From: Escherichia coli
Lineage (GTDB): Bacteria; Pseudomonadota; Gammaproteobacteria; Enterobacterales; Enterobacteriaceae
DNA length: 64,000 nucleotides
Assembly (NCBI RefSeq): GCF_044647545.1
Contig: NZ_CP172818.1
Direction: 5' to 3' (one strand)
Position 1 is the stretch's first letter. Every line of letters begins with the position of its first letter. This document shows, piece after piece, positions 24,527 to 25,132 of this stretch. A program made the translations under genes and the position numbers. The notes below the pieces were generated by a model, which was not told the origin of the DNA, did not search any database, and saw nothing but the letters and a program-made list of their open reading frames with translations.

Positions 24527-25132
24527 CATCTCTTTTTTTGGGGAAGAAAAAAAAAAAAAACATTTGTTTGGGGAGGAGAGGGAAAAAAAAAAATTAAGGG
24601 AACAACGAGATTGTGGAAGAAGCCGGAGAGAAAAAAGCGGCAAAAAAAGAGAGAGAGGGGGAAAAAAAGCAGACAAAAAAAGGGAGACGGAAAAAGAGCG
24701 CGAGAAGGGGAAAAAGAGGAGAAGCGGGGAGCGAGAAAAAAAAACCCACCTCTCTTCTTCTCTGGGAAAAAAAAGCGGGAAAATAAAGGGAAAAGAAGGG
24801 GGGAGAAGAGTGGAGAAGACCACAAAAGAGAGGAGTGTTGTTGGAAAGAGAAGAAGTCGCGGGGTCCCCCGCAGGGGGGAGGGGGAGAAAAAGGGGTGTT
24901 TTCGCAAGAAAAAGAAGAAGGAAAGAAGGGGGGAGTGCCGGAGGAAGTGTGAGTAGAAAAACGAATGAGGGGGGAGCTATATGAAAGAAGGGGCGGGGGC
25001 AGGGGGTCATTCGGAAAAAAAAAAGAATGTTGAAAAAAAAGAAAGAAAAGGAAAAATTAAAGAAGAAAAGAGGAGGGGAGGGAGAAAGAAAATTCGGGAT
25101 GCGGGGCAGGAGGGTGCGCGGTGCTGGATATT
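24527..25132 (+). repeat. ~600 bp low-complexity homopurine (A/G) tract on the + strand (homopyrimidine on - strand), with poly-A runs up to 14 and multiple G4+ runs
   Basis: Direct reading: almost no C/T over ~600 bp except short islands (24551-24560, 24603-24626, 24755-24777, 24866-24880); overlapping ORFs on both strands are compositional artefacts. Confidence 0.85.

Follow-up and report, generated by a model that had tools for sequence, protein, structure and literature searches.

A purine-dominated stretch of about 590 nucleotides, which lies between frvA and rhaM in a 64-kb window of the Escherichia coli contig NZ_CP172818.1 (assembly GCF_044647545.1; the window is the whole stretch of 64,000 nucleotides that we analysed), appears to be a garbled copy of a rafY-like porin gene, and we consider it, with a probability of about 0.9, to be a local low-quality consensus or assembly artefact of that gene and not real DNA. 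The initial annotation of this region, which was made from the letters alone, had treated the tract as intergenic DNA, while naming a low-quality consensus or assembly artefact as an alternative. In place of intergenic DNA we find a sequence that aligns, garbled but in order, with a resident gene of 1,395 bp, and it is the alternative that is supported by the comparative evidence and by the pattern of errors. The reading of the tract as a garbled consensus is preferred because the sequence is unique to one assembly, because its losses follow base class and because similar patches are found nearby. The features of the locus, in coordinates of the window, are the following.

23657-24103, minus strand: intact frvA (PTS fructose-like IIA component); placed by the FDAARGOS_497 annotation (L003 26456-26902, offset 2799).
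24253-24526, plus strand: upstream/promoter region of the rafY-like gene, with deletions denser toward the tract; from comparison with FDAARGOS_497.
24527-25115, plus strand: the homopurine tract, an apparent garbled in-order copy of porin nucleotides about -35 to +910; from alignment and placements.
24981-25190, plus strand: spurious 69-aa ORF over the right end of the tract; WP_400165097.1 / UPI0037DDDD2D by exact look-up.
25110-25116, no strand: junction at which the porin gene lacks about 490 nt toward its 3' end (gene positions about 910-1395); from placements and BLAST.
25116-25152, no strand: hairpin lying between rhaM and the porin gene, which are convergent, with a unique TT at 25142-25143; read by eye.
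25153-25467, minus strand: rhaM (L-rhamnose mutarotase), an intact 104-aa ORF; from the ORF list and comparison with FDAARGOS_497.

The segment 24527-25132 contains 261 A, 223 G, 67 T and 55 C. It had been described as nearly pure A and G over about 600 bp, and the sequence does read so at first sight, but "almost exclusively" overstates a purine content of 80%; the remaining 20% of pyrimidines break the purines every 5 nt or so on average. The longest pure purine run is nonetheless 34 nt (25059-25092), against at most 19 nt for runs of either purines or pyrimidines outside the tract. The purine fraction peaks at 0.875, about 7 standard deviations above the 64-kb mean of 0.50 (sd 0.05), both the GC skew and the AT skew are strongly positive here and nowhere else in the window, and in no other part of the 64 kb does a 200-nt window exceed 72% or fall below 28% purine, which bears out the statement that nothing comparable occurs elsewhere. 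Among the finer features that had been pointed out, poly-A runs of up to 14 nt are present as described, the longest being at 24547. There are likewise 17 G runs of four or more, although the longest has 6 nt and not 7. A CT-rich island and a GCGGGGTCCCCCGC palindrome also exist, at 24745-24763 (not 24755-24777) and at 24859-24872 (not 24866-24880) respectively. The better bounds for the anomalous stretch as a whole are 24527-25115.

When the region 24000-25600 was searched with megablast against 5,426 complete E. coli genomes, the flanks alone matched. The genomes nearest to these flanks, namely FDAARGOS_497, IAI39, CE10 and ST648 strains, carry in the gap between frvA and rhaM a plus-strand CDS of 1,395 bp annotated as "carbohydrate porin". 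Its intact product of 464 aa matches the Pfam family PF16966 (Porin_8/RafY) with E = 3.7e-154, and found no match in an NCBIfam search. On this basis the gene is predicted to encode a RafY-type glycoporin, 'rafY2'-like. RafY is described as a glycoporin through which maltose, sucrose and raffinose are taken up, and a homologue, rafY2, is found in E. coli O157:H7 (PMC4809568). The known genes of this type, rafY of plasmid pRSD2 and the chromosomal rafY2 of O157:H7 and of phylogroup D/F, share the Porin_8 (PF16966) assignment. The porin locus is carried by 2,545 of the 5,426 complete genomes (about 47%), while K-12-type genomes are without it and have a frvA-rhaM spacer of 300 bp. The interval measures 1,049 bp here against 1,911 bp in FDAARGOS_497; it is thus 862 bp shorter than in this relative and about 750 bp longer than in the K-12-type genomes. 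The tract occupies the same slot on the same strand as the intact gene of FDAARGOS_497, IAI39, CE10, ST648 strains and O157:H7. Unlike that gene, it lacks about 45% of the bases as well as the 3' third, and retains neither a reading frame nor protein similarity. A tblastn search with the intact 464-aa porin against the 64-kb window returned nothing with an E-value below 0.8, none of the ORFs in the tract encodes Porin_8, and a second copy of the porin gene was not found anywhere in the window.

At the nucleotide level the relationship becomes apparent with suitable scoring. Standard blastn returns a single weak HSP (E = 0.003) between 24575-24682 and gene positions 55-181, which is why the homology is easily overlooked. 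When 24527-25112 was aligned globally with gene positions -35 to 915 under neutral scoring, the score was 682, as opposed to 485 ± 15 for the shuffled tract (z = 13) and 346 ± 41 for other reference segments in the same alignment (z = 8 for the tract's 682). These gene positions were used since an alignment forced onto the whole reference of 1,435 nt misplaces the middle of the tract. Alignment of purine-only strings was supportive with weaker z-scores of 6-9, and global alignment under very lenient scoring failed to separate the tract (276) from shuffles (262 ± 6). The order of the sequence was assessed by semi-global placement of 50-nt pieces of the tract, 20 of the 22 of which fell in rising order between gene positions 56 and 871, with a Kendall tau of 0.79 compared with 0.06 ± 0.14 (maximum 0.39) for 58 decoy segments; under neutral scoring the tau was 0.43 and the decoy maximum 0.27. 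Taken with these controls, the alignments and placements argue that the tract descends, in nucleotide order, from the rafY-like porin gene.

Aligned in this way, 950 reference nucleotides of the porin gene have shrunk to 586-589, at a steady compression of about 1.55 reference nucleotides per tract nucleotide up to gene position ~910. The loss is strongly dependent on the base: retention is 80% for A and 73% for G, as opposed to 25% for C and 25% for T, so that among the pyrimidines about 75% dropped out and among the purines 20-27%. Substitutions are skewed in the same direction, with 46 changes from pyrimidine to purine and 3 from purine to pyrimidine. The process can be followed by eye at individual sites, as where the reference GGGAACGTAAATAATGAAAAAATCGACATT corresponds to GGGGAAG-A14-CATTT in the tract and where GGAACAACGCATGGCATTGCTGGAAGAACGCCTGGAAGCGG corresponds to GGAACAACGAGATTGTGGAAGAAGCCGGAGAG.

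The damage does not begin at the edge of the tract. The flanks on both sides had been taken for ordinary DNA, which does not hold on the left, where 24253-24526 has lost 18 bases relative to the near-identical FDAARGOS_497 (13 G, 2 C, 2 T and 1 A), with 1 substitution and no insertion. In successive 50-nt bins of this upstream region the retention of G falls from 6/7 to 5/13 to 1/7, with the pyrimidines kept. The error changes its character near the start of the gene: from about -180 to -30 relative to the porin start codon there is selective loss of G, and from about +21 onward pyrimidines are lost and G is kept. Across 24395-24545 the window shows at most 90% identity to all 2,545 genomes that carry the region. 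On the right, in contrast to this gradual onset, the recovery is abrupt. The placements leap from gene position ~908 to ~1414, and BLAST identity resumes at 25116, equivalent to L003 28779, which is 5-6 nt past the porin stop codon (L003 28773). From 25116 onward the identity is perfect except for the insertion of TT at 25142-25143. This spectrum of base-class dropout, a switch from G to pyrimidine loss, gradual onset and abrupt recovery looks non-biological.

The TT insertion lies in the hairpin at 25116-25152, the stem of which reads CCGGCAC--CGC in FDAARGOS_497 and CCGGCACTTCGC here, and it is missing from all 2,556 genomes that have the hairpin. As read by eye, the hairpin is a putative terminator common to the porin gene and rhaM; it was not listed by the terminator scan.

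The tract is private to one public assembly. With a query across the left junction, all genomes having the locus ceased to match at 24526, and with a query across the right junction 2,556 genomes matched from 25116 onward only, at no more than 96.9% identity; a continuation into the tract from either junction was found in none of the 5,426 complete E. coli genomes. A 33-mer from the tract was likewise not found in 100,044 species-representative (GTDB) genomes. Finding the same tract in independent assemblies had been proposed as what would establish it as genuine, and it is in none. The ORFs inside it had been dismissed as compositional artefacts, a judgement with which we agree, as they are all low-complexity strings of K/E/G/R or F/L/S/P. 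One of them, the 69-aa ORF at 24981-25190, has nevertheless been annotated at NCBI as "hypothetical protein [Escherichia coli]" (WP_400165097.1); its cluster has one member, with NCBI and UniRef as sources, and among ~15 billion proteins it is encoded on just one contig, of 4,499,902 bp. That this ORF is already in NCBI excludes a synthetic, planted sequence.

The surroundings of the tract are nearly clonal with FDAARGOS_497. Identity is 100% over bases 1-8901, there are no differences in 11508-24252 (~13 kb to the left of the tract), and 26722-59291 (~32 kb to the right) differs by a single SNP. Against a background of about 1 SNP per 32 kb, some 440 changes within about 950 nt cannot be ordinary divergence, and pseudogene decay was likewise rejected as the origin of the tract.

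Two further stretches depart from this near-clonality, and their coordinates are given below.

26425-26721, plus strand: second corrupted patch, in REP/BIME repeats between rhaD and rhaA; from comparison with FDAARGOS_497.
8897-11507, no strand: third patch of unique differences, in an accessory island between fabY and yiiE; from comparison with FDAARGOS_497.

The patch between rhaD and rhaA has lost 24 bases (8 G, and then mainly T, with 15 T and 1 C) with no insertions, the density of deletions climbing from left to right before a sudden end; it also differs from FDAARGOS_497 by roughly one extra repeat unit of ~184 nt. Judged by this comparison it is probably a second patch of garbled consensus. 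The patch in the accessory island has a deletion of 154 bp at 8901 and at least 7 frameshifting indels, which split an alpha/beta-hydrolase gene into ORFs of 160, 82 and 89 aa, together with clusters of substitutions near toxin-antitoxin (nadS) genes. Its variants are matched in none of the 5,426 complete genomes, among which the best identity is 98.7% over 8800-11600 and 97.1% over 9890-10260, and the sequence is either a third patch of low quality or an allele that is very rare.

We propose that the failure would have occurred while this one public assembly was being produced, whether in the sequencing, in the building of the consensus or in the filling of a gap. Over the first ~910 nucleotides of the porin gene most pyrimidines and a minority of purines would have been dropped, with many of the leftover pyrimidines miscalled as purines; the last ~490 nucleotides would then have been lost at a join, error-free sequence returning just past the gene. 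The likeliest cause, as we infer it, would be that the stretch was filled from a single poor long read or very few of them, for instance from the untrimmed tail of a decaying read or as a bridge between accurate contigs, though conflicting reads, with and without the variable segment, may instead have misled the consensus or the polishing. Since most of the assembly has extremely high accuracy, whatever went wrong must have been very local. The tract resembles the low-quality patches of long-read or hybrid assemblies in being short, dominated by deletions and set in a near-perfect assembly, in occurring in one assembly only, in giving spurious ORFs and in that the affected sites fall at repeats and strain-variable segments. 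It differs from the usual homopolymer or methylation-motif errors in that only ~55% of the bases are kept, and from usual assembly errors in its combination of pyrimidine loss and pyrimidine-to-purine miscalls, with loss confined to G or to T elsewhere. A loss of 40-60% of the bases is indeed far worse than the normal error of a long-read consensus, and this counts against an artefact. Nanopore error profiles are dominated by deletions and favour transitions over transversions (PMC8486125); such published profiles fit the deletions seen here and not the bias from pyrimidine to purine. The papers that we found treat long-read error in general, and no published description of purine-only garbling was found in this literature. 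A further difficulty for an artefact is that the switch in error mode and the recovery match the start and stop of the gene oddly well, which the tail of a random read would not predict; the coincidence may stem from the edge of a strain-variable haplotype or from the hairpin past the gene.

That edge leads to a related possibility, which we regard as unlikely but worth stating, namely that the artefact had a biological trigger in a culture, or in combined read sets, that were heterogeneous at the porin locus, for example through a subpopulation with the porin deleted or rearranged, or through polishing with reads of a strain lacking it. Consensus columns in which about half the reads have a gap would then drop out in a base-dependent manner, so that the molecule would be unreal and the structural variation real. 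In keeping with this, all of the corrupted patches fall on segments that vary among strains: 2,545 of the 5,426 genomes have the porin locus and K-12-type ones lack it, the REP/BIME array differs in copy number and the third patch is an accessory island; the affected span, 24253-25143, also approximates the one over which porin-type and K-12-type haplotypes differ. Heterogeneity accounts less well for the error gradient and the constant compression of ~1.55:1 up to ~910 followed by a clean jump, which are more like a single decaying read, nor is there a mosaic of SNPs in the surrounding core or, as far as the eye can judge, any K-12-type sequence recognisable in the tract.

Both of these explanations deny the tract as a molecule, and the converse, that it is physically real and arose in vivo through strand-asymmetric, deletion-dominated hypermutation that turned the porin gene into a polypurine/polypyrimidine tract of ~590 bp, strikes us as very improbable. 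Its presence in a deposited public assembly and the closeness of its edges to the start and stop of the porin count in favour of such hypermutation, and, if real, the tract could adopt an H-DNA form and affect its frv and rha flanks. No mutational mechanism is known by which one strand of a single gene would lose its pyrimidines, and such a process would have had to spare 45 kb of flanks with their single SNP; against it stand also the absence of the tract from all 5,426 complete genomes and its confinement to one contig, the comparable base-specific dropouts in a REP region that is unrelated and lies 1.3 kb off, and the want of structural features, there being no canonical G-quadruplex and no mirror arms longer than 11 nt, which is no better than in shuffles. 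It had also been asked whether comparison with other E. coli genomes would reveal an insertion. A foreign or mobile low-complexity element inserted between frvA and rhaM would agree with the excess of ~750 bp over K-12-type genomes, but that additional length is the resident porin locus of 47% of genomes, the tract aligns in order to the porin gene, the interval is 862 bp shorter than that of the closest relative, and no transposase is encoded in it, its ORFs being all of low complexity; the tract is the locus of a resident gene and not an insertion, an origin that we hardly credit at all.

The structural potential that had been ascribed to the sequence fares no better. Genuine polypurine/polypyrimidine tracts that form triplexes (H-DNA) are known in eukaryotic promoters and introns, and the present tract resembles them in a purine asymmetry between the strands over hundreds of bases and in pure runs of up to 34 nt. 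It is unlike them in being 20% pyrimidine, in a mirror symmetry at the level of chance, in its occurrence in no other genome and in its derivation, through what looks like the dropout of bases, from a coding gene. The best mirror repeat in the tract has an 11-nt arm and a 6-nt spacer, and composition-matched shuffles reach 12, so the suggested triplex potential is not borne out, the repeats being no longer than chance allows for the composition. Neither is the suggested G-quadruplex potential, as a search for the canonical motif (four G runs of at least 3, loops of 1-7 nt) found no match on either strand of the whole 64-kb window. A scan for promoters and terminators gave nothing above shuffles, and the proposed effect on the frv promoter and on the termination of rhaM finds no support in what appears to be a garbled copy of a gene. 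Unless the existence of the tract is demonstrated, the proposals of a triplex, a G-quadruplex and a promoter effect are moot.

The significance of an artefact of this kind would lie in data quality and not in new biology. In surveys of pangenomes, porins or phage receptors the porin of this strain would score as absent or as a pseudogene, at least one spurious database protein (WP_400165097.1 / UPI0037DDDD2D) would result, and the tract would come up as a false positive where genomes are scanned for non-B DNA, for slippage-prone repeats or for "novel intergenic elements". The signature that it leaves, consisting of an in-order match to a gene, base-class dropout, a gradual onset, an abrupt end and clonal surroundings, could serve to flag such patches automatically.

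Several differences of another kind were observed along the window. The lone SNP in the right flank is at 34803, between kdgT and yiiM, with C here and T in FDAARGOS_497. The gene rhaT is cut to an ORF of 266 aa (31739-32539, minus strand) as a frameshifted pseudogene; the frameshift is common to FDAARGOS_497 and therefore a genuine shared lesion of the clone. In FDAARGOS_497 rpmE is followed by an rhs element of ~7.4 kb (rhsC, ybfB, an RHS fragment and IS1), which is missing here, yiiX coming directly after rpmE, and it is here, at about 59291, that the clonality with FDAARGOS_497 ends. Over 59291-64000 the best match is GF131 (98.9%), with 56 substitutions and 1 indel in ~5 kb, and position 59291 looks like a natural recombination boundary. 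The substitutions past 59292 are mostly transitions, many of them spaced in multiples of three, and these third-position substitutions, together with the frameshift in rhaT, illustrate what genuine variation resembles in this window.
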